Source of the DNA: a virus
Lineage: Duplodnaviria > Heunggongvirae > Uroviricota > Caudoviricetes
IMG/VR virus record: IMGVR_UViG_2541047926_000009
Location: 1 to 10,439 of that record
DNA: 10,439 bases
Strand: one strand, 5' to 3'
Shown here: in pieces, positions 1 through 10,111 of the stretch
How the letters are laid out: every line of letters starts with the position of its first letter
Numbering within the stretch: position 1 is the first letter of the stretch
The notes under the pieces: generated by a model
Database searches by the model: none
Told to the model about the DNA's origin: nothing
Seen by the model: only the letters and a program-made list of their open reading frames with translations
Translations under genes and position numbers: made by a program

Positions 1-678
1 TTAATCGTACGAGTCGAGTATGTTCTGAAACGCCCAGCCATCCTCCTTAGGAACACAAGACAGAATCGAATGAATTAGATCCCCTGCGGAAAGAAGTAAC
101 CCTTCTTGCCCTTCAAGAAAATAACGCCATTTAGGTCCATGAAACAGATTGTTCCGTAACCGGAAACAAACGAACAAGCACACTGCAAGCTGAGTCTCAG
201 GCTCGGTTGTCATAGCTTGCATGGCTGAAAAACAGTCATCTCTCGCCTTTTGAGAGGTGTGGTGTAATTCCCCGCATAGGCTTTCAAACTTGCTTTTATC
301 ATTTACATAGCGTTCTGAAAAAAAATCGTATGTACACTTGAGAACCCCCAGATCCACAACCTCCATTTGCAAAAGACGATTGGCATATTTCGCACTTTTG
401 CCTTGCCCCCCAGCGCAATTAAGAAGTAGAGACTCGAAGAAAGAGAAGTACAAAAAATAACGATTAACGGCGGTAAGGATAGATGGGGTAATCCTGCCTT
501 CTGCATTAATCAACTCGTCAAATTCTGATGAAAAATCCAACTGTTCATCCTTTTCCATTATATTCGGCCATTTATTGATATTGCACATCAGTCGCTCTTG
601 GCAATGACAGGTTTGCTCTCGGTAATGTCTCAAACGCCCCAAAAAGTAGTCTCGCAAATGCTCTAGTTGCTCGCGCAT
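1..678 (-). CDS. Hypothetical accessory (moron) protein, 225 aa; contains a HEPN-like Rx4H motif (FRLRNNLFHG); candidate abortive-infection/defence protein
   Basis: Complete ORF on - strand (ATG at 676-678, TAA at 1-3). Visibly AT-rich relative to the lambda-like core genes. Preceded upstream by a - strand intrinsic terminator (803..830), so it is probably its own transcription unit. Only a weak GAAG RBS. No recognised family beyond the short motif. Confidence 0.5.
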   Translation of the reverse strand: MREQLEHLRDYFLGRLRHYREQTCHCQERLMCNINKWPNIMEKDEQLDFSSEFDELINAEGRITPSILTAVNRYFLYFSFFESLLLNCAGGQGKSAKYANRLLQMEVVDLGVLKCTYDFFSERYVNDKSKFESLCGELHHTSQKARDDCFSAMQAMTTEPETQLAVCLFVCFRLRNNLFHGPKWRYFLEGQEGLLLSAGDLIHSILSCVPKEDGWAFQNILDSYD

Positions 679-1201: not shown

Positions 1202-1810
1202 CTATTGCAATCTAGCCTGACGCAAATGTGGCAATACCCTGCTCCACTTATTATCCTGCCAAGGCTGGAATTTTACATGTGCCGTTTTTCTGGCAAGGAT
1301 TTCGCGCGCCTTATGTAGTATCTGGGGATATTCTTGCTCGATAGAAGTAAAGCGACCGGCTTCGCGGTGTTCCGCAACCTGAAGAAGTGGAGTAACGTTC
1401 TGGCAGGCGGTTAACATCGTATCACTTGCTCGCCATAACCAAGCAAGTGTGCAAAGTTCGTTATCAGTGAATTGTTTTGTGATCGGGGATTGTTGAACTT
1501 CTCGATCGAGAATATCCAGAACCCAGCGGCGGAACTCTTTGGCTACAGGAGTTCGTGCAAACATGGCGATCAAATGGGCTCCGCGAAGGCTAAATACTCG
1601 AGACTCCTGCATTCCACGAGGGGTGGTCACTTTGACCACCCTTGTCATCATATCTGTAAATTCATCTGAGTGACGAGAGTAAATGCGCTGAACTGCTTTA
1701 TCGTCCGCATATTCCAGAGCTAAACCAACTTCAGTGGCAGTAAGCCAAATTCTGTTATTGTGGCAAATTGGGGTAAACGTCGTTTTGTGGAATGCTAATT
1801 GAGTAGTCAT
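1202..1810 (-). CDS. Bro-N / antirepressor-like (Roi-like) N-terminal domain protein, 202 aa
   Basis: ORF with a good RBS (GAGGTG about 6 nt upstream of ATG 1808-1810). The N-terminal ~100 aa follow the Bro-N/ANT pattern (W-L-x-A-x-E-V ... G-x-Q ... AK-E-F-x-x-W-V). Located in the nin-region position downstream of P. Domain call is from pattern recall only. Confidence 0.5.
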   Translation of the reverse strand: MTTQLAFHKTTFTPICHNNRIWLTATEVGLALEYADDKAVQRIYSRHSDEFTDMMTRVVKVTTPRGMQESRVFSLRGAHLIAMFARTPVAKEFRRWVLDILDREVQQSPITKQFTDNELCTLAWLWRASDTMLTACQNVTPLLQVAEHREAGRFTSIEQEYPQILHKAREILARKTAHVKFQPWQDNKWSRVLPHLRQARLQ

Positions 1811-1966
1811 AGTATCACCTCATCAGGTTAACCATCACCACCAACGACGCCAATCGACTGGTGGTGAACTGTGCAAGGTTGGCGTAACCGGCTACTCAAA
1901 CCCGGCGCTCCCGAAGAAGCCCTCACACAGCCCACCATAATTTGGGCGTAGCCGTGCTTAGCGCAT

Positions 1967-1987
1967 AAAAAAACCGCTTAACGCGGT
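1967..1987 (-). terminator. Putative tR2-like intrinsic terminator (- strand)
   Basis: Stem ACCGC (1973-1977) / GCGGT (1983-1987), 5-nt loop; on the - strand followed by a 7-nt U-run (complement of A-run 1967-1973). Sits downstream of the P operon and upstream of the Bro-N gene. Confidence 0.4.
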
Positions 1988-2476
1988 ATGCGTTGAGTAG
2001 TATTCCGGGACGCCAATCCCGTGTGCCGATTTTGCGGCAACGCACAGAATATAGCGCCGGATAAATAATGTCGTCAACCCTTGCAAATGGGGGGCGCGAT
2101 GATCACTACTACCACTATAACCGCTCCAACTGTTGCAACTACTTTAGGCCAAGACATCAAGATTTCCATATCACCTTTAGCTGCGAAACGAACAGAGGTT
2201 CCCATCTCTATACTGCCGAGGCCAAACACCGAATATAAAAAACCGCAGGTGCATCTCTGCATCTGTGAAGGGAGAAGAGAGTTTGGATTGTATGTGCGCA
2301 TAAACGTCCCCGTTTAGCGCAGAAGTCACCGGAGTTGTTCATATTCTGATGACATGATAATTTCCTATTGAATAGAAAAAATTAACACTACTCATTCTTA
2401 TGACTGGAAAAAGCAATCATGCTAATAATCATTGTTGTTCCAGTTCCAAATGCAGCGAAATAATCACTAATATTTT

Positions 2477-2506
2477 TTCTACCGGTTTCGACTTTGATGC
2501 TATATT
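2477..2506 (+). promoter_or_regulatory. Candidate sigma70 promoter for ORF 2560..2907
   Basis: -35 TTCTAC (2477-2482), 18-bp spacer, -10 TATATT (2501-2506) in a very AT-rich intergenic stretch about 55 bp upstream of the ATG. Confidence 0.3.
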
Positions 2507-2559
2507 CTGCTAACACCTAACTAACACTACGTTTCACACAGCAATTACATGGAAATAAC

Positions 2560-2907
2560 ATGACTATCAAAGCGACTGACATAGAGATTCTTCATCGTTA
2601 TGCTGAAGGGGTAATGGAACGTTCTAACCATCATGCAAAAAATGTTGGTGCAGCCGCTCTTACATTGCTAGGAGGTGTTATCTGGAAAGCCCTGCCCGGC
2701 TCAATCGAGATAAGAACGTATAACGGAAGTCTTGCAAATATGGTGTGGTGGCAAAGCGAAAGAACATTAAAAAATTATGCAATCTCATACAACCATAATT
2801 CATGTGAAATTGAAATGAGAGATGAATCAGTCAAAGGTGCTGTATTATTTAGCATTTCCAACGAAACCACTCCAGAAAAAATATTATCACAGCTTTCTGA
2901 GCTTTAA
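2560..2907 (+). CDS. Hypothetical moron protein, 115 aa, opposite strand to the flanking early-right operon
   Basis: Clean ORF with ATG at 2560 and TAA at 2905-2907; AT-rich; own candidate promoter upstream and a perfect hairpin (2913..2930) immediately after the stop; convergent with P. No recognised family. Confidence 0.5.
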   Translation: MTIKATDIEILHRYAEGVMERSNHHAKNVGAAALTLLGGVIWKALPGSIEIRTYNGSLANMVWWQSERTLKNYAISYNHNSCEIEMRDESVKGAVLFSISNETTPEKILSQLSEL

Positions 2908-2912
2908 TTAAA

Positions 2913-2930
2913 GGCGGTGCTAACACCGCC
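2913..2930. terminator. Hairpin between convergent genes (ORF 2560..2907 and P)
   Basis: Perfect 7-bp stem GGCGGTG (2913-2919) / CACCGCC (2924-2930) with 4-nt loop ctaa. No clean T-run on the + strand; a partial U-rich tract on the - strand (uuuaauu). Confidence 0.35.
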
Positions 2931-3111
2931 CATACCATTACTCCACATCTTACGCAACTTGATAATTATGCTCTATTAAATACCCACAATATTTCATCAA
3001 TGCATGGGTCAGCTATAAAATGTTTACCGTGGTAATTCCTGTTTTCGCAACATCTCAAAAGAACAATAAACACTGTATTTCTTCAAGTAACGAAGAATCT
3101 TTCTTTGCCCG

Positions 3112-3813
3112 TCATACACTTGCTCCTTTCAGCCCAAACTTAGCTTTGATTTCTGCGATCTTCGCCAGAGCCTGTGCACGATTTAGAGGTCTACCGCCCA
3201 TGACAGGAAGTTGTTTTACTGGTTCAGGTATCGCCTCACCACGGTTAATTCGCGCGGTCATACAGGTCAGCTCATCGGCAGCTTTACGCCGTAATTCCGC
3301 GTCAGTCAGCGCATTGGCCCGCATGTTCTGGTACAGGTTGGTAACCAACCAGTAGTGCGCGTTTGATTTCCATGGATAAGACTCTGCGTCCGGATACAGG
3401 CCACGCTTCCGGCAATACTCGTAAACCATATCAACCAGCTCGCTGACGTTTGGCAGCCCGGCGTTAACGGATGCTTCTTCCCGGCACCAGGCCACAAACT
3501 GCCCGGGTGATGGCAGGAATGGTCGATTCTGCCGACGGGCTACGCGCATTCCTGCGTTAACCTGTTCCATTGTGGTGATCCCGTTTTCCCGGAAAGCCAG
3601 CACCCACTGGCGGCGGATTTCGTTCAGTTCGTTCTGATCCCGGTTAGCCAGGCTCGCAGGGAAAGTTGCCAGTAACTGGCTGAACACACCGTTGATGATC
3701 TGCGCTACCTGCTGTACCTGCGGCTTTTCGTCGTACTGTTCCGGCATATTGTTGGCGATCCGGCGCATCTGCTCACGGTCAAAGTTAACCATCTGTGCGG
3801 CGATGTTTTTCAT
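3112..3813 (-). CDS. P: Replication protein P (DnaB helicase loader), lambda-type, 233 aa
   Basis: The 233-aa translation (MKNIAAQMVNFDREQMRRIANNMPEQYDEKPQVQQ ... KFGLKGASV) is near-identical to phage lambda P as recalled. The start ATG (3811-3813) overlaps the O stop (TGA 3810-3812) in an ATGA arrangement. Confidence 0.95.
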   Translation of the reverse strand: MKNIAAQMVNFDREQMRRIANNMPEQYDEKPQVQQVAQIINGVFSQLLATFPASLANRDQNELNEIRRQWVLAFRENGITTMEQVNAGMRVARRQNRPFLPSPGQFVAWCREEASVNAGLPNVSELVDMVYEYCRKRGLYPDAESYPWKSNAHYWLVTNLYQNMRANALTDAELRRKAADELTCMTARINRGEAIPEPVKQLPVMGGRPLNRAQALAKIAEIKAKFGLKGASV

Positions 3814-4739
3814 AAATCCACCCCGTAAATCCAGTCAGTGTTCGTCAGGTCGAGTTTTGGTTTGCCGGCTGTCACGCCAGCCTGTTGCTTGTTTCGGTTG
3901 ATTTCGAGCTGGGTCCACTTGTCGCGGAGTTTGGCCGGACTCAGCACGTTACCGGACCAGAAGTTGTCCTGGCATGCCCAGCGGAACAGCACGCACATGT
4001 CGCGGTGGTTATGTCCGTCACGTTCACGCATCAGGCGGATATCGTTAGCCCACCCTGCAAAATTCGGTTTTCTGGCTGATGGCGCGATGGTCTTCACCAT
4101 GTCAAACATCCACTCTGCGGCGGTCAGGTCTTCTGCTGTCCCCCACTTGCTGCCACTCTGAATTGCAGCATCTGGTTTCACCACAGGAAGATCGTTTTCT
4201 GGTTGGTCAGAGGATTCGCCAGAATTCTCGGACGAAAAAGGTTTTATATTGTCTTTTGTTAGTTTGTCTTTTGTGTTTACCTGATTCGGGTAAACGCCTT
4301 TACCTGATTTGGGTAAACTTTTCTTACCTGATTCAGGTAAATTTACCTCTTTCAGGTAAACTTTATTTTTCTTACCTGATTCGGGTAATGTTGACCATTC
4401 ACTGACCACATTATTAATACCGATATTCCGCCCGCTCTGAATCAAAATCCCACGCTTTACCAGAACACTTTTTGCAGCAGAACACTTGTGCGGCAATATC
4501 CCGGTCAATTCGGAAAGTTGCTCGTTGCTAACCCAATCCAGTTTTTTATTAAAGCCATATGTTTTGCGCATGACAGCCAGGAAGACCAGAAGCTGGTGCT
4601 GTGTTAATCCGGCCAGCATCACAGCTTCCAGCAACTCATTTGCAATGCGCGTATAACCATCATCGAGATCTGCCACGCGCGGCTCCTTTTGTGCCACATC
4701 CGGCACTGGAAAATTGAATATCTCAGCAGTGTTTGCCAT
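3810..4739 (-). CDS. O: Replication initiator O (lambdoid O protein) with divergent N-terminal iteron-binding domain and lambda-like C-terminal P-interaction domain
   Basis: C-terminus (ANDIRLMRERD ... KLRDKWTQLEINRNKQQAGVTAGKPKLDLTNTDWIYGVDL) closely matches lambda O; N-terminus (MANTAEIFNF ... VADLDDGYTRIANELLEA) is related but diverged. Start chosen at ATG 4737-4739 because GGGAGGAA lies 6 nt upstream; the ORF track's longer start at 4829 lacks this RBS. Iterons lie inside the gene. Confidence 0.9.
   Translation of the reverse strand: MANTAEIFNFPVPDVAQKEPRVADLDDGYTRIANELLEAVMLAGLTQHQLLVFLAVMRKTYGFNKKLDWVSNEQLSELTGILPHKCSAAKSVLVKRGILIQSGRNIGINNVVSEWSTLPESGKKNKVYLKEVNLPESGKKSLPKSGKGVYPNQVNTKDKLTKDNIKPFSSENSGESSDQPENDLPVVKPDAAIQSGSKWGTAEDLTAAEWMFDMVKTIAPSARKPNFAGWANDIRLMRERDGHNHRDMCVLFRWACQDNFWSGNVLSPAKLRDKWTQLEINRNKQQAGVTAGKPKLDLTNTDWIYGVDL
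4277..4388. repeat. Origin of replication: five 17-bp iterons (consensus TTACCTGATTCGGGTAA) with adjacent AT-rich tract
   Basis: Iterons at 4277-4293, 4300-4316, 4324-4340, 4343-4359 and 4372-4388, each with internal dyad symmetry (TTACC...GGTAA); they encode the LPESGKK repeats in O. An AT-rich tract (about 4237-4276) lies on the O-distal side, matching lambda ori architecture (iterons plus AT-rich region inside O). The iteron sequence differs from lambda. Confidence 0.75.
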
Positions 4740-4776
4740 AATTCCTCCCGCAATGAGTGTGTTACGATTTGCACCT

Positions 4777-4809
4777 GAAAGTCGGTTCTGTTCCCGCAGA
4801 CCGACTTTC
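4777..4809. other. Perfect 10-bp inverted repeat (hairpin) in the cII-O intergenic region
   Basis: GAAAGTCGGT (4777-4786) / ACCGACTTTC (4800-4809) with a 13-nt loop, between the cII-like stop (4826) and the O start (4739). No strong T-run on either side. Confidence 0.4.
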
Positions 4810-4825
4810 GCCATTTCTGAACCTG

Positions 4826-5371
4826 TCATATTGCCCCCAGCATGGTGGTCACCATCGCCATTAATGGACCAGCCAGATCCGGGTCCACACGAAACATCGA
4901 CACAATACCTTCACTCATTTCCTTCAGTTTCTGGTGGCGTGGTGCGTTGAGAATGACAGCCTGTTTTGCCTCACTGAGTTCCTTTTCCATTTCAGCCAAC
5001 CGAACCATGAAGCTATCCTGCTCAACCAGGTAACCGCGATATTCCAGCGGTAGTACCGCCAGAATTGCCGGGGTCAGTTCACGCACGTTATTTCGGTATT
5101 TTTCAGAATCGAATTTGTTATCGAGGAAGCGGAACAGCTTCTGGCGTGCACGGCTGACATCATCAGGGAAATCGATGGTGCCGCCGCCCTGCTCCCGATA
5201 CTCATTCACAATGAGTGTGGCAACGACATCCTGATTATCTACAGCCGACCAGGCGCGGACGGCATCACGGATTTTTTCGTGGCCTGGCACCTGTTTTGTT
5301 TGAGAACGATTTATCACCGCAGTCGGGCTAAATCCGCTAGTCTGTTGGTATGTAAGTGGTTGCATAGTCAT
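4826..5371 (-). CDS. cII-position lysogeny regulator (CII/YdaT-like), 181 aa
   Basis: ORF directly downstream of cro and upstream of O on the same strand, i.e. the cII position; RBS AAGG. Too long to be lambda-type CII. Family assignment is positional and tentative. Confidence 0.45.
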   Translation of the reverse strand: MTMQPLTYQQTSGFSPTAVINRSQTKQVPGHEKIRDAVRAWSAVDNQDVVATLIVNEYREQGGGTIDFPDDVSRARQKLFRFLDNKFDSEKYRNNVRELTPAILAVLPLEYRGYLVEQDSFMVRLAEMEKELSEAKQAVILNAPRHQKLKEMSEGIVSMFRVDPDLAGPLMAMVTTMLGAI

Positions 5372-5395: not shown

Positions 5396-5623
5396 TTAGG
5401 CGGCAGAATTACTCGCGTTAAACAATGGTGCGAGGTCGGGACGAATATCTGCTGGTTTAATCTTTCCACCAGTGGCTGAGACAATTTTCATTACATAGCG
5501 GGCATCAATTCCGCCACCGTGTAGCCAACGCCAAACAGTGGGTTGGGCTACACCGCATAGATCTGCCAGTCGTTTTTGACTACCTGTAATACTGATTGCG
5601 AGTTGAATGGTTTTATTTGTCAT
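5396..5623 (-). CDS. cro: Cro-like repressor (YdaS-type HTH), 75 aa
   Basis: Small HTH protein divergent from cI (MTNKTIQLAISITGSQKRLADLCGVAQPTVWRWL...). ATG at 5621-5623 with AGGAA 6 nt upstream; the track start at 5629 is a TTG. Shares the GVAQPT(I/V)WR recognition-helix motif with the cI N-terminus, consistent with binding the same operators. Confidence 0.75.
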   Translation of the reverse strand: MTNKTIQLAISITGSQKRLADLCGVAQPTVWRWLHGGGIDARYVMKIVSATGGKIKPADIRPDLAPLFNASNSAA

Positions 5624-5654
5624 TATCAATTCCTATTGGTATTGAAATGAATGA

Positions 5655-5684: not shown

Positions 5685-5722
5685 TAGCAAAACGTGTTTT
5701 GACCATCAATACGCAAGCGTAT
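5658..5722. promoter_or_regulatory. oR-like operator cluster: three 14-bp sites at 25-26 bp spacing
   Basis: ATAGCAATGCGTAT (5658-5671), ATAGCAAAACGTGT (5684-5697) and ATACGCAAGCGTAT (5709-5722, near-palindrome ATACGC/GCGTAT). They overlap the pR -10, the region between the two -35 elements, and the pRM -10 respectively, mirroring lambda OR1-OR2-OR3. Confidence 0.5.
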
Positions 5723-5725
5723 AAA
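5699..5725 (+). promoter_or_regulatory. pRM-like promoter for cI (leaderless or near-leaderless transcript)
   Basis: -35 TTGACC (5699-5704), -10 TATAAA (5720-5725). The cI ATG (5735) is only about 10 bp after the -10 and has no Shine-Dalgarno, as for lambda cI transcribed from pRM. Confidence 0.45.
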
Positions 5726-5734
5726 TTAAAACTT

Positions 5735-6427
5735 ATGAAAAAAGAAACTCTTGCTGATCGCTTAAACCTAGCGATGGAACAATCTGGAATGTCTCAAGGC
5801 GCTCTTGCAAAGGCGTCTGGCGTAGCTCAACCCACAATCTGGAGACTGACAAGCGGCAACGCGCGCGGCTCAACAAAAATTGTTGAAATAGCTAATGCAT
5901 TGGGTGTTCGAACAGAATGGCTCTCATCAGGCATAGGCCCGATGAGAAATGACGGTCAACAATCAGGGAAGCCTGCTGTCAGCCATTCCAAATACTTCAA
6001 AATTGACGTTCTTGATATAGAAGTCAGTGCCGGGCCGGGTGTAATCAACCGTGAGTTTGTAGAAGTTCTACGCTCGGTTGAGTACTCGTTTGACGATGCT
6101 CGTCACATGTTCGATGGCAGGAAGGCGGAAAATATCCGCATCATTAACGTGCGTGGTGACAGCATGTCAGGAACGATCGAACCAGGTGATCTTTTGTTCG
6201 TTGATATCACTGTTAAATCTTTCGACGGTGATGGTATCTATGCGTTTCTGTACGACGACACAGCCCATGTAAAGCGCCTGCAAATGATGAAGGATAAGCT
6301 ACTGGTTATCTCTGATAACAAGAGCTACTCACCGTGGGACCCGATCGAGAAAGACGAGATGAACCGGGTGTTCATCTTCGGTAAGGTTATTGGGAGCATG
6401 CCGCAGACATACAGGAAGCATGGTTGA
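5735..6427 (+). CDS. cI: cI-like prophage repressor (N-terminal HTH, C-terminal LexA/S24 autopeptidase domain), 230 aa
   Basis: HTH region (GMSQGALAKASGVAQPTIWRL), candidate Ala-Gly autocleavage site (EVSAGPG), S24 catalytic Ser motif (RGDSMSG) and downstream Lys (AHVKRL). Divergent from cro across the operator region. Start set at ATG 5735; the track start at 5699 is a TTG with no RBS. Not lambda, 434 or P22 immunity by recall. Confidence 0.85.
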   Translation: MKKETLADRLNLAMEQSGMSQGALAKASGVAQPTIWRLTSGNARGSTKIVEIANALGVRTEWLSSGIGPMRNDGQQSGKPAVSHSKYFKIDVLDIEVSAGPGVINREFVEVLRSVEYSFDDARHMFDGRKAENIRIINVRGDSMSGTIEPGDLLFVDITVKSFDGDGIYAFLYDDTAHVKRLQMMKDKLLVISDNKSYSPWDPIEKDEMNRVFIFGKVIGSMPQTYRKHG

Positions 6428-6603: not shown

Positions 6604-6783
6604 ATGATTCGCAAATTATTAAAAATTATTGAATCTAAACCCCCTAGGGCCACTGATGCAGAGGTTCAGGAAGTTATTGACGAAATAAAGAAAAAACAAA
6701 ATGAAATTGCCGAAAAGAAGGAAGAGATAAAGAATGACCGTATCCGCGGCGCAAGAATCACAAACCACCGATTCATTGTATGA
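6604..6783 (+). CDS. Possible small Lys/Glu-rich protein, 59 aa, overlapping the start of the 283-aa ORF
   Basis: ATG 6604 to TGA 6781-6783 (MIRKLLKIIESKPPRATDAEVQEVIDEIKKKQNEIAEKKEEIKNDRIRGARITNHRFIV); not in the supplied track (below its size cutoff). Weak RBS (AAGAGA). Overlaps the downstream ORF by 50 bp in another frame. Could be spurious in AT-rich DNA. Confidence 0.25.
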   Translation: MIRKLLKIIESKPPRATDAEVQEVIDEIKKKQNEIAEKKEEIKNDRIRGARITNHRFIV

Positions 6784-7585
6784 TTTTCTATATGTTGATA
6801 ACAAGCGGGCATCATCGCTCTTGGCACAGATGCATGGGCCTGGTGTAATAACATCTATCAGACAGGTAACAGCTGAAGTTGACAAATCAGTAAGTGATGC
6901 CGGCTTTGACATTAAAATCATTAAGTCAAAACTTGGTGTTGAGGAAACTATCAATTACACCCATGAAAAAAGCTATGATGCTTCATGGACGCTTCCTATT
7001 AACCTCTTAGATAAACTTTCTGAAAATGATCTAATAAAAACAGAACTTAATGGTGAAAGACTTGGGAGTACTGTTTTATCTAAAGGCCATGTTCGTATTT
7101 TTGATATTTCCATGTTTCAAAAAAGCGTCCCGTTTGTAGCAAAAATGCTAAAGGCAGAACGCTCCAAGCTACCGCCAAAAGCAAAAAAAACGAATGATAG
7201 TATTGACGAAATCCCCGTCTCGCCCGGTGTCACTTTTGGCATGATGAAAGAAGTACTTAATATTGTCCCGAACACATTGCAGGTTGATTTTATTAATGAT
7301 TTTGGTCAAACCATTTGGATGACTATTAATCGTGATTACCTCACCATTAATCCAGACGATATGGTTCTAAAATATGGTGGGAGTATTCCAGGCGAATGGT
7401 ACGTACTTGGTTTTATCGATGCCCTTCCTGAATATGACCAAGAACTTTTCGATATGTCTGTGTTCCCGTCAAACCCTTTGAAAGATGGCATAACAGAAAT
7501 GCTTTCTGGGATAAAAGAATTAGCAGGCCGCAGTAGCACCGCATACGGAATGACTCCTCTTGTGATTTTCAGGAAAATTCAGTAA
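6734..7585 (+). CDS. Hypothetical protein, 283 aa, at the position occupied by rexA/rexB in lambda; candidate superinfection-exclusion/anti-phage defence protein
   Basis: Long ORF with RBS AAGGAAG about 10 nt upstream of ATG 6734 and TAA at 7583-7585; visibly AT-rich; own promoter upstream and a strong terminator right after. No Walker, nuclease or transmembrane motif recognised by eye. Function is inferred from genomic context only. Confidence 0.6.
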   Translation: MTVSAAQESQTTDSLYDFLYVDNKRASSLLAQMHGPGVITSIRQVTAEVDKSVSDAGFDIKIIKSKLGVEETINYTHEKSYDASWTLPINLLDKLSENDLIKTELNGERLGSTVLSKGHVRIFDISMFQKSVPFVAKMLKAERSKLPPKAKKTNDSIDEIPVSPGVTFGMMKEVLNIVPNTLQVDFINDFGQTIWMTINRDYLTINPDDMVLKYGGSIPGEWYVLGFIDALPEYDQELFDMSVFPSNPLKDGITEMLSGIKELAGRSSTAYGMTPLVIFRKIQ

Positions 7586-7592
7586 GTTCAGA

Positions 7593-7619
7593 CCCGGCCA
7601 CCGTGCTGGGTTTTCTTTT
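7593..7619 (+). terminator. Rho-independent terminator (tIMM-like) ending the cI-cargo transcription unit
   Basis: Stem CCCGGC (7593-7598) / GCTGGG (7605-7610) with one G-U pair, 6-nt loop, followed by TTTTCTTTT (7611-7619); 8 bp after the stop of the 283-aa ORF. Confidence 0.65.
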
Positions 7620-7745
7620 GCCCTCCCCTCATCACACACCGCTCAAAAAACCACCACATCCCTGCTTCAGTTATCGCTATGCGATGCAAGTCACAAAATT
7701 AATTCTTTTTGCTATCAAACATTTAATATCAAAACACATCAACCA

Positions 7746-7784
7746 ATAGCAATAAGTATTGATATCACCAATAGCAATAGTTAT
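7746..7784. promoter_or_regulatory. oL-like operator sites (two 14-bp sites, 25 bp apart)
   Basis: ATAGCAATAAGTAT (7746-7759) and ATAGCAATAGTTAT (7771-7784) share the ATAGCAA(T/A) half-site with the oR sites and overlap the -35 edge and the spacer/-10 of the pL candidate. Confidence 0.5.
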
Positions 7785-7787
7785 TAT
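7759..7787 (+). promoter_or_regulatory. pL-like early-left promoter
   Basis: -35 TTGATA (7759-7764), 17-bp spacer, -10 TATTAT (7782-7787); oriented toward gam-bet-exo and overlapped by the operator-like repeats. Confidence 0.55.
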
Positions 7788-7980
7788 CACCATATCGCAA
7801 CAACACAACGATACGGCAACCACCTGATTCACCGTTGCGATGACCGCTTAGATCCGCAGTTTGAATTTCAGCAGGCTTCGGGGAGTGCGAGGGGTGAAAC
7901 GGACGCGTGAACGTCGGTGTGACCAGCTGAAATTAACTCAACATTTCATACCTCAGTCGCTTCAACGAGGCGGTTTAGTT

Positions 7981-8271
7981 ATGACAACCGGCGGCCATCC
8001 ACCGCCTGAATACGCGCAGAAGTCTCTATATGTTCAGCAGCCCAGCTTACGGGCAGGAGTTTTTATGGTTCATCAACATTACGGAACACAGACCGTTAAT
8101 CGCGGTGCGGTCATGCCAGGAATGCTGGTCAAACACAAAGATAGTACCTGGACAGCATCAGCTAATTTACGCGGACGGCTTTATCTGCATCGCGGCATCG
8201 AGCGCACTTATACCCGTGACTTGCTCGTGGAAGTTTTTCTCGACGGACGCGGCAACGGCCTGAATCACTAA
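7981..8271 (+). CDS. Hypothetical protein (96 aa from ATG 7981; alternative start ATG 8065 gives 68 aa) occupying the N-to-kil interval
   Basis: ORF ending TAA 8269-8271. ATG 7981 has GAGG about 10 nt upstream; internal ATG 8065 has a stronger RBS (AGGAG, 5-nt spacer). The same frame is open from 7852 and encodes an arginine-rich stretch (RGVRGVKRTRERR) but with no ATG (only TTG/GTG). No similarity to lambda N, cIII or Kil recognised apart from the shared terminal His-stop. Confidence 0.4.
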
Positions 8272-8346
8272 CCCCCTTTCCTGTTTTCCTAATCAGCCTG
8301 GCATTTCGCGGGCGATATTTTCACAGCCATTTTCAGGAGTTCAGCC

Positions 8347-8643
8347 ATGAACGCTTATTACATTCAGGATCGTCTTGAGGCTCAGAGCTGGGCGCGTCAC
8401 TACCAGCAGATCGCCCGTGAAGAGAAAGAGGCAGAACTGGCAGACGACATGGAAAAAGGACTGCCCCAGCACCTGTTTGAATCGCTATGCATCGATCATT
8501 TGCAACGCCACGGGGTCAGCAAAAAAGCCATTACCCGTGCGTTCGATGACGATGTTGAGTTTCAGGAGCGCATGGCAGAACACATCCGGTACATGGTTGA
8601 AACCATTGCTCACCACCAGGTTGATATTGATTCAGAGGTATAA
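8347..8643 (+). CDS. gam: Gam (RecBCD inhibitor), short GamS-type form, 98 aa
   Basis: Translation ([56 protein letters not shown] ... [10 protein letters not shown]) is near-identical to the C-terminal 98 aa of lambda Gam. AGGAG lies 8 nt upstream of the ATG. The in-frame upstream region has a stop at 8290-8292 and no ATG. Confidence 0.9.
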
Positions 8644-8648
8644 AACGG

Positions 8649-9434
8649 ATGAGTACAGCACTCGCAACGCTGGCAGGGAAGCTGGCTGAACGTGTCGGCA
8701 TGGATTCTGTCGACCCACAGGAACTGATCACCACTCTTCGCCAGACGGCATTTAAAGGTGATGCCAGCGATGCGCAGTTCATCGCATTGTTGATCGTCGC
8801 CAACCAGTACGGCCTTAATCCGTGGACGAAAGAAATTTACGCCTTCCCTGACAAGCAGAACGGCATCGTTCCGGTGGTGGGCGTTGATGGCTGGTCCCGC
8901 ATCATCAATGAAAACCAGCAGTTTGATGGCATGGACTTTGAGCAGGACAATGAATCCTGTACATGCCGGATTTACCGCAAGGACCGTAATCATCCGATCT
9001 GCGTTACCGAATGGATGGATGAATGCAGCCGCGAACCATTCAAAACCCGCGAAGGCAGAGAAATCACGGGGCCGTGGCAGTCGCATCCCAAACGGATGTT
9101 ACGGCATAAAGCCATGATTCAGTGTGCCCGTCTGGCCTTCGGATTTGCTGGTATCTATGACAAGGATGAAGCCGAGCGCATTGTCGAAAATACTGCATAC
9201 ACTGCAGAACGTCAGCCAGAACGCGACATCACTCCGGTTAACGATGAAACCATGCAGGAGATTAACACTCTGCTGATCGCCCTGGATAAAACATGGGATG
9301 ACGACTTATTGCCGCTCTGTTCCCAGATATTTCGCCGCGACATTCGCGCATCGTCAGAACTGACACAGGCCGAAGCAGTGAAAGCTCTTGGATTCCTGAA
9401 ACAGAAAGCCACTGAGCAGAAGGTGGCAGCATGA
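8649..9434 (+). CDS. bet: Bet (Red-beta single-strand annealing recombinase), 261 aa
   Basis: Translation ([59 protein letters not shown] ...) is near-identical to lambda Bet. Its stop overlaps the exo start (ATGA at 9431-9434). Confidence 0.95.
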
Positions 9435-10111
9435 CACCGGACATTATCCTGCAGCGTACCGGGATCGACGTGAGAGCTGTCGAACAGGGGGATGATGCAT
9501 GGCACAAATTACGGCTCGGCGTCATCACCGCTTCAGAAGTTCACAACGTGATAGCAAAGCCCCGCTCAGGAAAGAAGTGGCCTGACATGAAAATGTCCTA
9601 CTTCCACACCCTGCTGGCTGAGGTTTGCACCGGTGTAGCTCCGGAAGTTAATGCTAAGGCGCTGGCCTGGGGAAAACAGTACGAGAACGACGCCAGAACC
9701 CTGTTTGAATTCACTTCCGGCGTGAATGTTACTGAATCCCCGATCATCTATCGCGACGAAAGTATGCGCACCGCCTGCTCTCCCGATGGTTTATGCAGTG
9801 ACGGCAACGGCCTTGAACTGAAATGCCCGTTTACCTCCCGGGATTTCATGAAGTTCCGGCTCGGTGGTTTCGAGGCCATAAAATCGGCTTACATGGCCCA
9901 GGTGCAGTACAGCATGTGGGTGACGCGAAAAGATGCCTGGTACTTTGCCAACTATGACCCGCGTATGAAGCGTGAAGGCCTGCATTATGTCGTGGTTGAG
10001 CGGGATGAAAAGTACATAGCGAGTTTTGACGAGATGGTGCCGGAGTTCATCGAAAAAATGGACGAGGCACTGGCTGAAATTGGTTTTGTATTTGGGGAGC
10101 AATGGCGATGA
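9431..10111 (+). CDS. exo: Exo (Red-alpha 5'-3' dsDNA exonuclease), 226 aa
   Basis: Translation ([65 protein letters not shown] ...) is near-identical to lambda exonuclease with a few substitutions. Confidence 0.95.

Follow-up and report, generated by a model that had tools for sequence, protein, structure and literature searches.

A Vch_cass14-family gene, probably prophage cargo, at the P/nin junction of a lambdoid prophage

Gene content of the window and limits of the inserted block

The window analysed here, that is, the whole stretch of 10,439 nucleotides from IMG/VR record IMGVR_UViG_2541047926_000009, is part of a lambdoid prophage and is oriented inversely to the usual lambda map. The genes and signals that concern us are as follows.

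1202-1810, - strand: Bro-N/P22AR_C antirepressor
2237-2341, - strand: remnant of a leader ORF (orf33 of phage 82), recognised by similarity; far flank of the insertion hotspot
2343-3101, no strand assigned: AT-rich inserted block from the end of P to the nin-leader remnant, delimited by composition and the edges of homology; holds the gene and its signals
2498-2506, + strand: candidate extended -10 element, TGcTATATT (TGCTATATT), from pattern and ortholog comparison
2551-2555, + strand: weak Shine-Dalgarno-like GGAAA, 5 nt before the ATG, read from the sequence
2560-2907, + strand: Vch_cass14-family coding sequence, 115 aa, ATG start, product identical to RefSeq WP_000152742.1
2913-2930, no strand assigned: GC-rich hairpin GGCGGTG-CTAA-CACCGCC with a perfect 7-bp stem and a 4-nt loop, from folding
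3112-3813, - strand: replication protein P (PF06992, E 8.8e-62), in the early-right operon and convergent with the 2560-2907 gene
3810-4829, - strand: O
4826-5371, - strand: YdaT-like gene
5396-5629, - strand: cro-like gene
5699-6427, + strand: cI-like S24 repressor
8649-9434, + strand: bet
9431-10111, + strand: exo

From P to the antirepressor, the reading frame at 2560-2907 is the only sizeable one on the + strand, and P, O and the antirepressor are all encoded on the strand opposite to it. DNA homology to lambda, 434 and 21 covers the end of P and ceases at about position 3102, which is the start of ren in those phages. A preliminary description of this DNA had placed the gene where lambda has ren, which agrees with this edge of homology, and had also placed it immediately next to P, which does not hold, since 204 bp separate the two. 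At its other side the block ends at the leader-ORF remnant, which is matched at 97-99% by phage 82 and by thousands of E. coli genomes; an ORF of this type precedes ybcN/ninB in DLP12-type prophages. The RefSeq annotation shows a pseudogene fragment near the remnant. We also considered a 42-aa ORF on the - strand (2388-2516) as a gene and rejected it as non-coding: it belongs to no family and has no protein similarity to the divergent neighbour in Citrobacter.

Coding status and conservation of the opposite-strand gene

The 115-aa opposite-strand ORF proposed earlier at 2560-2907 is a true gene and is subject to strong purifying selection. It starts with ATG, its product matches PF18315, phrog_5959 and PDB entry 3IMO (see below), and its orthologs in related prophages are conserved as coding sequence, a point on which the preliminary description had made its reading depend. 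Orthologs at 63-78% identity were found in Citrobacter, Serratia and other enterobacterial sequences, and pairwise comparison of the enterobacterial orthologs gave pN values of 0.11-0.29 and pS values of 0.71-0.90, the latter saturated, with dN/dS between 0.05 and 0.11 in the five pairs for which dS could be computed. A purine-rich box (AGGGGA, GGAAA, AAGGAA or AGGAG) occurs in the orthologs at the site equivalent to that of the weak Shine-Dalgarno-like sequence. Within E. coli, the AT-rich block is almost identical (99.4%) in 181 of 5426 complete genomes, with O26 and O103 strains among the matches listed, and about 180 genomes keep the frame intact, all four of the copies checked having the same RefSeq protein accession. 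Because the E. coli copies are this similar, the signal of selection comes from the comparison between genera and not from within the species, and variation in the promoter region among these near-identical copies was not informative.

The AT-rich composition reported earlier was likewise confirmed. The block of about 760 bp at 2343-3101 has a GC content of 36.1%, falling to 31.8% in the 217 nt before the ATG, and the GC3 of the ORF is 31%; the corresponding values are 54.3% for P (GC3 60%) and 46.5% for the whole window.

Candidate promoter and post-stop hairpin

The preliminary description also credited the gene with its own sigma70 promoter. A sigma-70 scan found at best 9 of 12 matches on the + strand, and the four sites in the region compare with 3.1 expected from shuffled sequences, so that scan matches do not rise above shuffles and what remains of the claim is the candidate extended -10 element at 2498-2506. 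From this element, transcription is predicted to start at about 2512-2514 and the 5' UTR to be some 47 nt long, and a T-rich stretch at 2468-2480 lies at the position expected for an UP element. Since the pattern TGNTAWAWT is unique in the window but at chance level (one occurrence versus 1.9 expected), TGCTATATT stays a candidate. A TGCTAT(A/G)TT box is found 47-66 nt before the ATG in three of the four other prophage orthologs that share this flank (L002, L058 and L060, not L059), or in four of five prophages when the window is counted, and the similarity between the E. coli and Citrobacter upstream regions is limited to a short stretch with TGCTATATT, the flanks otherwise diverging. These comparisons lead us to propose that an extended -10 promoter of the gene's own, at about 2498-2506, drives its transcription. 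DNA as AT-rich as the block at 2343-3101 is often silenced by H-NS.

The hairpin begins 5 nt past the stop codon and folds with an energy of -13.2 kcal/mol (z = -4.6 versus shuffled sequences). Hairpins of different stem sequence are found 5-9 nt past the stop codon in four of five prophage orthologs (L002, L058, L060 and L061). The perfect 7-bp hairpin noted earlier is thus well supported by its stability and its kept position, but read on the + strand it falls short of a canonical intrinsic terminator, as it is followed by CAUACC and not by a U-run, and a terminator scan made no call. On the - strand, the stem has 8 bp and is followed by UUUAAUUAAAG, so the hairpin may act also on transcripts leaving P. 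Judged from folding and position, the hairpin is likely a 3'-end or terminator element, possibly for both strands. Two repeats flank or overlap the gene, one direct (10 nt, 2508-2517 and 2918-2927) and one inverted and perfect (13 nt, 2468-2480 and 2874-2886). We rejected both as insertion scars: neither is conserved in the Citrobacter loci, and the direct repeat is roughly what chance would produce.

The state of these signals and of the surrounding DNA bears on a sober alternative, namely that the gene is not expressed and is simply carried along in a decaying region or that the locus is only a source of RNA antisense to P. Gene remnants do lie between P and the antirepressor (the pseudogene fragment and the truncated nin-leader ORF), the promoter evidence is weak, and a poorly terminated + strand transcript would enter P in the antisense direction. 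In addition, a tblastn search of 50,697 GenBank phage records gave no match, so the gene is in no sequenced isolated phage and has no link to a studied one. Neither form of this alternative sits well with a frame that is intact in so many genomes and gives the same accession in every copy checked, with a strong protein-level constraint between genera, or with a ribosome-binding site and a hairpin that are kept in position, and a dN/dS near 0.1 makes an RNA-only role insufficient as an explanation. We regard both forms as very improbable.

Comparison with other cargo genes of lambdoid prophages

The P/nin junction carries different cargo in different phages: ren in lambda, 434 and 21, three small same-strand genes in a prophage of E. 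coli strain 133, and ybcL/ybcM in DLP12. In the window, the gene separates genes that are neighbours in related phages, and the composition of its block deviates from that of P (36% vs 54% GC); these are marks by which a moron is recognised. The arrangement recurs with orthologs of 72-78% identity in Citrobacter-type and other enterobacterial prophages, where the opposite-strand layout is kept. Both in the Citrobacter prophages and on three prophage contigs from IMG/VR, the ortholog has the replication genes on one side and the DinI/RusA/Q genes on the other, and almost all of its called neighbours are encoded on the opposite strand. The earlier designation of the gene as a moron therefore stands as far as its variable site, deviant GC content and kept layout are concerned, whereas the promoter and terminator signals that formed part of that designation remain candidates.

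As an extra gene at a module junction, the gene resembles rexAB, sieB, bor, lom and ren of lambda and ybcL/ybcM of DLP12, and it shares with these classical lambdoid morons a deviant GC content, putative signals of its own and a site that varies between related prophages. Unlike them, it has no sequence or fold relation to any of the group, PF18315 being its only Pfam match, and unlike ren it reads against the early operon. A Ren homolog, which would be expected on the strand of P and overlapping its end, was rejected as an identification, given the opposite strand, the 204-bp distance from P and the single Pfam match. We also rejected an origin of the window copy as an integron cassette: the window contains no attC-like site, and the neighbours are prophage genes on the other strand.

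Protein family, fold and ligand pocket

The preliminary description recognised no family for the protein and suggested a remote-homology search. That search returned a known family with a crystal structure and a RefSeq name already in use, so this claim has to be withdrawn. The protein matches Pfam PF18315 (Vch_cass14) with 71.7 bits against a gathering cut-off of 26.7, with residues 12-104 aligned to positions 2-92 of the 97-position profile; it further matches phrog_5959 over its full length (E 1e-80) and PDB entry 3IMO (E 1.3e-17). WP_000152742.1 is a "hypothetical protein" in older RefSeq annotation and a "Vch_cass14 family protein" in a recent record. The NCBIfam models gave no match to the protein, none of the families in PADLOC-DB 2.0 was matched at E values up to 0.1, and a search of plasmids gave three distant matches only. 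In full-text searches, the family turned up only in its structure paper (2013), and neither the Pfam nor the RefSeq accession turned up at all. Among 1.84 billion representatives it accounts for no more than 282 clusters at 50% identity, a small family in which nearly all members are single-domain proteins of about 113 aa. The second domains of the few fusion proteins (P0053, P0119, P0143, P0120 and P0159) were uninformative, the extra parts being low-complexity tails, a repeat of no known family and likely transposase read-through. Taken together, the gene, its family and its status as cargo form an assignment that we hold with high confidence.

3IMO is the structure, solved by structural genomics, of Vch_cass14, which is encoded by an integron cassette of Vibrio cholerae O139 Arg3. 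The protein is a dimer with an alpha+beta sandwich fold, and its hydrophobic pocket is deep and measures about 15 A in length (PMC3548836). The pocket is occupied by a linear aliphatic ligand whose identity was never established, and an acetate is bound at the polar pocket entrance by Tyr14, Arg21 and Asn60 (PMC3548836). The ligand could be an artefact of crystallisation or expression. Hydrophobic residues of the dimer interface on the helix face are conserved family-wide, the homodimer being formed via the helical faces, and the structure paper assigned no function to the protein (PMC3548836).

Our structure model is of a monomer and was built from an alignment of 124 family sequences; the AF2 model from the single sequence reached a pLDDT of only 48.7. 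The model has the two-layer alpha+beta sandwich of 3IMO, in the order beta1-alpha1-alpha2-beta2..beta6-alpha3, with a 2-residue insertion after strand 3 in the enterobacterial clade. Among the 124 members, Y14, H24, H25, A26, G38, N60 and W63 are invariant and R21, Y77, N78 and H79 are more than 95% conserved (R21, 99%), and all 17 of the pocket-lining positions given in the structure paper are hydrophobic or small in this alignment, the window protein included. Alignment and model thus indicate that the deep pocket with its Tyr14/Arg21/Asn60 entrance is kept in the window protein.

The window protein also differs from Vch_cass14 itself in its carrier and its charge. Its gene has a candidate promoter and a hairpin of its own and is carried by a lambdoid prophage and not by a promoterless attC cassette, and its net charge is -2, in contrast to the strongly basic sheet surface of 3IMO. 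The family as a whole has a median net charge of -1 and a median pI of 6.4, which rules out DNA or RNA binding via a basic surface as a family trait.

Genomic neighbourhoods of the family

The comparison of neighbourhoods covered about 130 distinct loci, taken from genomes, from viral contigs and from metagenomes, for which flanking ORFs were called, some of the metagenomic calls being crude. There is no fixed partner. About half of the 126 assessable loci lack a same-strand ORF within 80 nt downstream, and the downstream same-strand ORFs found within this distance belong to many unrelated families, 70 of them singletons. In Vibrio, the family occurs as a single-gene integron cassette (PMC3548836). 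We searched the loci for attC-like sites, defined as an imperfect palindrome of the form RYYYAAC ... GTTRRRY after the gene, and found such sites (GCCTAAC ... GTTAGGC) after the stop codon in five of 117 loci, compared with 0.25% of control windows; on this sequence criterion, some homologs are true integron cassettes. In at least four loci, a tyrosine recombinase overlaps the stop codon.

Several loci have known conflict genes on the same strand. AbiU lies 34 nt upstream of the homolog in Serratia marcescens, and nucleases of the Shedu SduA_C type lie 1 and 30 nt downstream of homologs, the 1-nt case being a 214-aa minimal Shedu (L144). A full-length PD-lambda-3_B HEPN protein is encoded 52 nt downstream of another homolog (L111), which thereby takes the place of gene A, and a PD-lambda-3_A-like gene lies 26 nt upstream in a different locus; PD-lambda-3 is an abortive-infection system (PMC13190303). 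The R subunit of a type I restriction system lies 1 nt upstream of one homolog, and a GIY-YIG nuclease, HNH and DruA are also among the same-strand neighbours. The close neighbours (AbiU, Shedu, PD-lambda-3, type I restriction, GIY-YIG and DruA) fall within about 55 nt.

Other neighbours are PDC-S31/DUF2971 and HEC-05/GmrSD-like proteins, DUF2513 proteins near some homologs, and, in Nostoc, toxin-antitoxin pairs. A 164-aa protein is encoded directly downstream in 11 loci, in five of which (L030 included) a SoFic-like Fic protein follows as the second gene downstream of the homolog. One Chitinophagales genome carries a module twice, in inverted orientation, that consists of an orphan toxin C-terminus, a 169-aa protein and the homolog; from its DPLGL motif we take the toxin tip to be of the Rhs type. 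Finally, several homologs have ordinary metabolic genes around them; L071, for one, lies between a peptidase gene and panBC.

Neighbours of this kind mark a family whose home is in defence or toxin islands and on mobile elements. Among the neighbours annotated in these loci, conflict and mobility genes predominate by raw tally, and adjacency in such islands is no proof of joint function.

Alternative functions of the prophage copy

The homologs in metabolic settings, together with the pocket, would fit a physiological conversion factor, unrelated to phage conflict, that binds or modifies a fatty-acid-like or other hydrophobic metabolite or signal to the benefit of the host. In its favour are the linear aliphatic ligand and the acetate at the entrance of the deep, conserved 3IMO pocket (PMC3548836), and the little or no variation that Arg21, Tyr14 and Asn60 as well as His24, His25 and His79 show within the family. 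However, no recurring metabolic neighbour gene was found across the family loci, and the neighbours that do recur are integrases, toxins and defence genes, which leaves this explanation distinctly unlikely in our estimate.

A second explanation starts from the linkage to conflict genes and holds that the protein is an orphan neutraliser or regulator, a swappable small partner of diverse toxic effectors, comparable to an antitoxin, an immunity protein or a sensor subunit, whose solo copy would protect the lysogen or the phage, as anti-defence or immunity, through neutralising an effector of this sort encoded elsewhere. It draws on the tight same-strand linkage to effectors that are unlike one another (Shedu with a 1-nt gap, PD-lambda-3_B, AbiU and GIY-YIG), on the 164-aa protein that occurs with Fic in five loci and, as a partner alone, in 11 by our count, and on the duplicated inverted Chitinophagales module, in which the homolog follows an Rhs-type tip and the 169-aa protein. 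In addition, the Vibrio homolog was overproduced in E. coli with no trouble reported (PMC3548836), which indicates that the homolog is not itself toxic. In being a small non-toxic protein, the window protein resembles AbiU2 beside AbiU1, gene A of PD-lambda-3, antitoxins and immunity proteins, and its homologs elsewhere, as such accessory genes do, lie directly beside AbiU, PD-lambda-3_B, Shedu-type nucleases and Fic. Unlike those genes, the family is often found alone and the window encodes no coupled effector; since there was no PADLOC match, it is also not homologous to these accessory partners. About half of the loci are without a coupled partner, and integron cassettes carry the gene by itself. 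Where a partner exists, it is upstream in some loci and downstream in others, and neighbours in a defence island need not cooperate. Antitoxins and immunity proteins co-evolve with their toxins, and it is unusual for them that the most conserved residues line an internal pocket, as they do here, which argues somewhat against a classical antitoxin or immunity protein. Overall, we consider the neutraliser explanation unlikely.

In a third explanation, the protein is a stand-alone defence or superinfection-exclusion factor that is expressed from the prophage and blocks other phages on its own. Position, orientation and composition of the gene are typical of exclusion genes expressed in lysogens, and homologs are found inside defence islands and integron cassettes. 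Phage resistance was obtained from about 18% of the Vibrio cholerae cassettes without known function that were tested, and the cassettes that gave resistance are mostly single small genes (bioRxiv 10.1101/2024.07.02.601686). Yet the family is absent from the 16 active cassettes described in that screen (bioRxiv 10.1101/2024.07.02.601686), a result to be read with the caveat that strain N16961 may lack the gene. The lack of a PADLOC match also speaks against this explanation, as does the nature of the product, a soluble 115-aa protein, putatively a ligand-binding dimer, with no evident effector activity, and we judge it rather improbable.

Proposed role of the prophage gene

The explanation that we propose combines the locus, the pocket and the neighbourhoods. 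A gene of the moron type, probably self-contained, sits at the variable P/nin junction, reads against the early-right operon and encodes a small Vch_cass14-family protein of the cytoplasm. An extended -10 promoter of its own would drive transcription, mainly in the lysogen because the gene faces the repressed early-right operon, and the hairpin would define or stabilise the 3' end of the transcript and limit antisense read-through into P. The protein would act as a dimer that binds a linear amphipathic ligand, with the hydrophobic tail inside the pocket, while Tyr14, Arg21 and Asn60 would hold its carboxylate-like head close to His24, His25 and His79, which vary little or not at all. Its role would lie in phage-host or toxin conflict and not in phage replication, and it might be exerted alone or by modulating an effector encoded elsewhere.

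As a whole, this account of an autonomous cargo gene for a ligand-binding dimer with a role in conflict seems to us slightly on the probable side. The conflict-related function taken by itself is a tentative proposal to which we would give somewhat less than an even chance; because the homologs lie in defence and toxin islands and in integron cassettes, the support for it, as for the lysogenic-conversion or defence role suggested in the preliminary description, comes by association only. A bolder reading is that the Vch_cass14 family is a promiscuous and so far unrecognised small-ligand-binding component of microbial conflict systems, serving as a sensor, regulator or neutraliser, which we offer as a doubtful but interesting suggestion. 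It is just as speculative that the effectors in this scheme would be interchangeable and include Shedu-type and other PD-(D/E)xK nucleases, HEPN proteins (PD-lambda-3_B), AbiU, Fic proteins and Rhs tips. If the scheme is true, the solo copy in the prophage would serve the lysogen as a trans-acting factor of anti-defence or immunity.

Implications for the Vch_cass14 family

Much of what lies at this locus is already known: the Vch_cass14 family, its structure, the name of the gene in current annotation and the moron layout as a type. What is new is modest, namely that a family with an orphan fold is placed at a cargo hotspot of prophages and that its association with defence and toxin genes is documented. 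A known family with a solved structure and with relatives among defence and toxin genes makes the gene a lead rather than a surprise. Nevertheless, the structure of the family dates from 2009 and a function was never assigned, and the window puts a member of the family in an easily handled E. coli prophage. The defence and toxin setting could offer a route to the function of an orphan fold; failing that, the gene is another ordinary piece of prophage cargo.

Repeats and remnant sequence around the Vch_cass14 gene

The Vch_cass14 gene is mostly enclosed by the arms of a perfect inverted repeat, and a shorter direct repeat has its first copy just past the candidate -10 box and its second within the hairpin. 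Neither repeat is kept in the orthologous loci of Citrobacter prophages.

2468-2480 / 2874-2886: 13-nt perfect inverted repeat, TAATATTTTTTCT / AGAAAAAATATTA
2508-2517 / 2918-2927: 10-nt direct repeat, TGCTAACACC
2237-2341, minus strand: 105-bp leader-ORF remnant
2261-2244, minus strand: terminator-like hairpin with T-run, inside the remnant

Among 5426 complete E. coli genomes, thousands contain DNA with 97-99% identity to the 2237-2341 segment, which is a truncated remnant in the window; the segment also matches (97-99%) orf33 of phage 82 and the small ORF preceding ybcN in DLP12. RefSeq annotates a pseudogene fragment near it.

An apparent antirepressor control module

The Bro-N/P22AR_C antirepressor gene (1202-1810, minus strand) is closely preceded by Rfam matches to two regulatory RNAs, and just upstream of both, on the same strand, is the best sigma-70-like site of the region.

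1857-1942, minus strand: C4 antisense RNA, RF01695 (72.7 bits)
1967-2039, minus strand: isrK Hfq-binding RNA, RF01394 (60.7 bits)
2077-2048, minus strand: sigma-70-like site TTGACG-18-TATATT (10/12 matches)

As a set, these elements resemble an antirepressor control module of the P1 c4/ant or Gifsy-1 isrK type, inserted within the nin region.

Other candidate genes in the window

Two AT-rich ORFs (38.6% GC) share the strand of the cI-like repressor and follow immediately on its 3' side, in the position that rexAB takes in lambda; PADLOC and NCBIfam gave no credible match for them. They are a second candidate for lysogen-expressed cargo or an exclusion gene in the window.

6604-6783, plus strand: 59-aa ORF
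6734-7585, plus strand: 283-aa ORF
1-678, minus strand: 225-aa ORF with theta-like N-terminus and HEPN-type motif

Residues 1-23 of the 225-aa ORF are similar to DNA polymerase III theta (HOT-like), and a HEPN-type motif of the form Rx4H, RNNLFHG, is present in its C-terminal part. The ORF had no PADLOC matches; the equivalent region of strain E2865 is annotated in RefSeq as two genes, one for a hypothetical protein and one for a protein with a HEPN domain.

Homolog loci and cargo of the P/nin hotspot

In a metagenomic array (L111, 4444-7360) with all genes on the same strand, the Vch_cass14 homolog comes first, followed by a full-length PD-lambda-3_B (HEPN/Hypoth_Ymh) protein, a second Hypoth_Ymh protein and a CAP12/Pycsar-type TIR protein; a PD-lambda-3_A gene is absent from the array. 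A Chitinophagales chromosome (L036) carries a three-gene module twice, in inverted orientation (3266-5114, plus strand; 6643-8506, minus strand), consisting of an Rhs-like gene, a 169-aa lipoprotein-like protein and the Vch_cass14 homolog. The Rhs-like gene is an orphan fragment that ends in NNPIVFVDPLGL, with a putative toxin domain after it, and it gave no sequence match in PDB.

Further cargo is present at the hotspot in other prophages.

L002, 6929-11186: Citrobacter prophage cargo comprising an AraC-type regulator resembling ybcM, an 813-aa unknown protein and a LuxR/GerE-type protein
L003, 3119-4213: colicin-domain protein in another prophage

These contents show that the P/nin region gathers much cargo.
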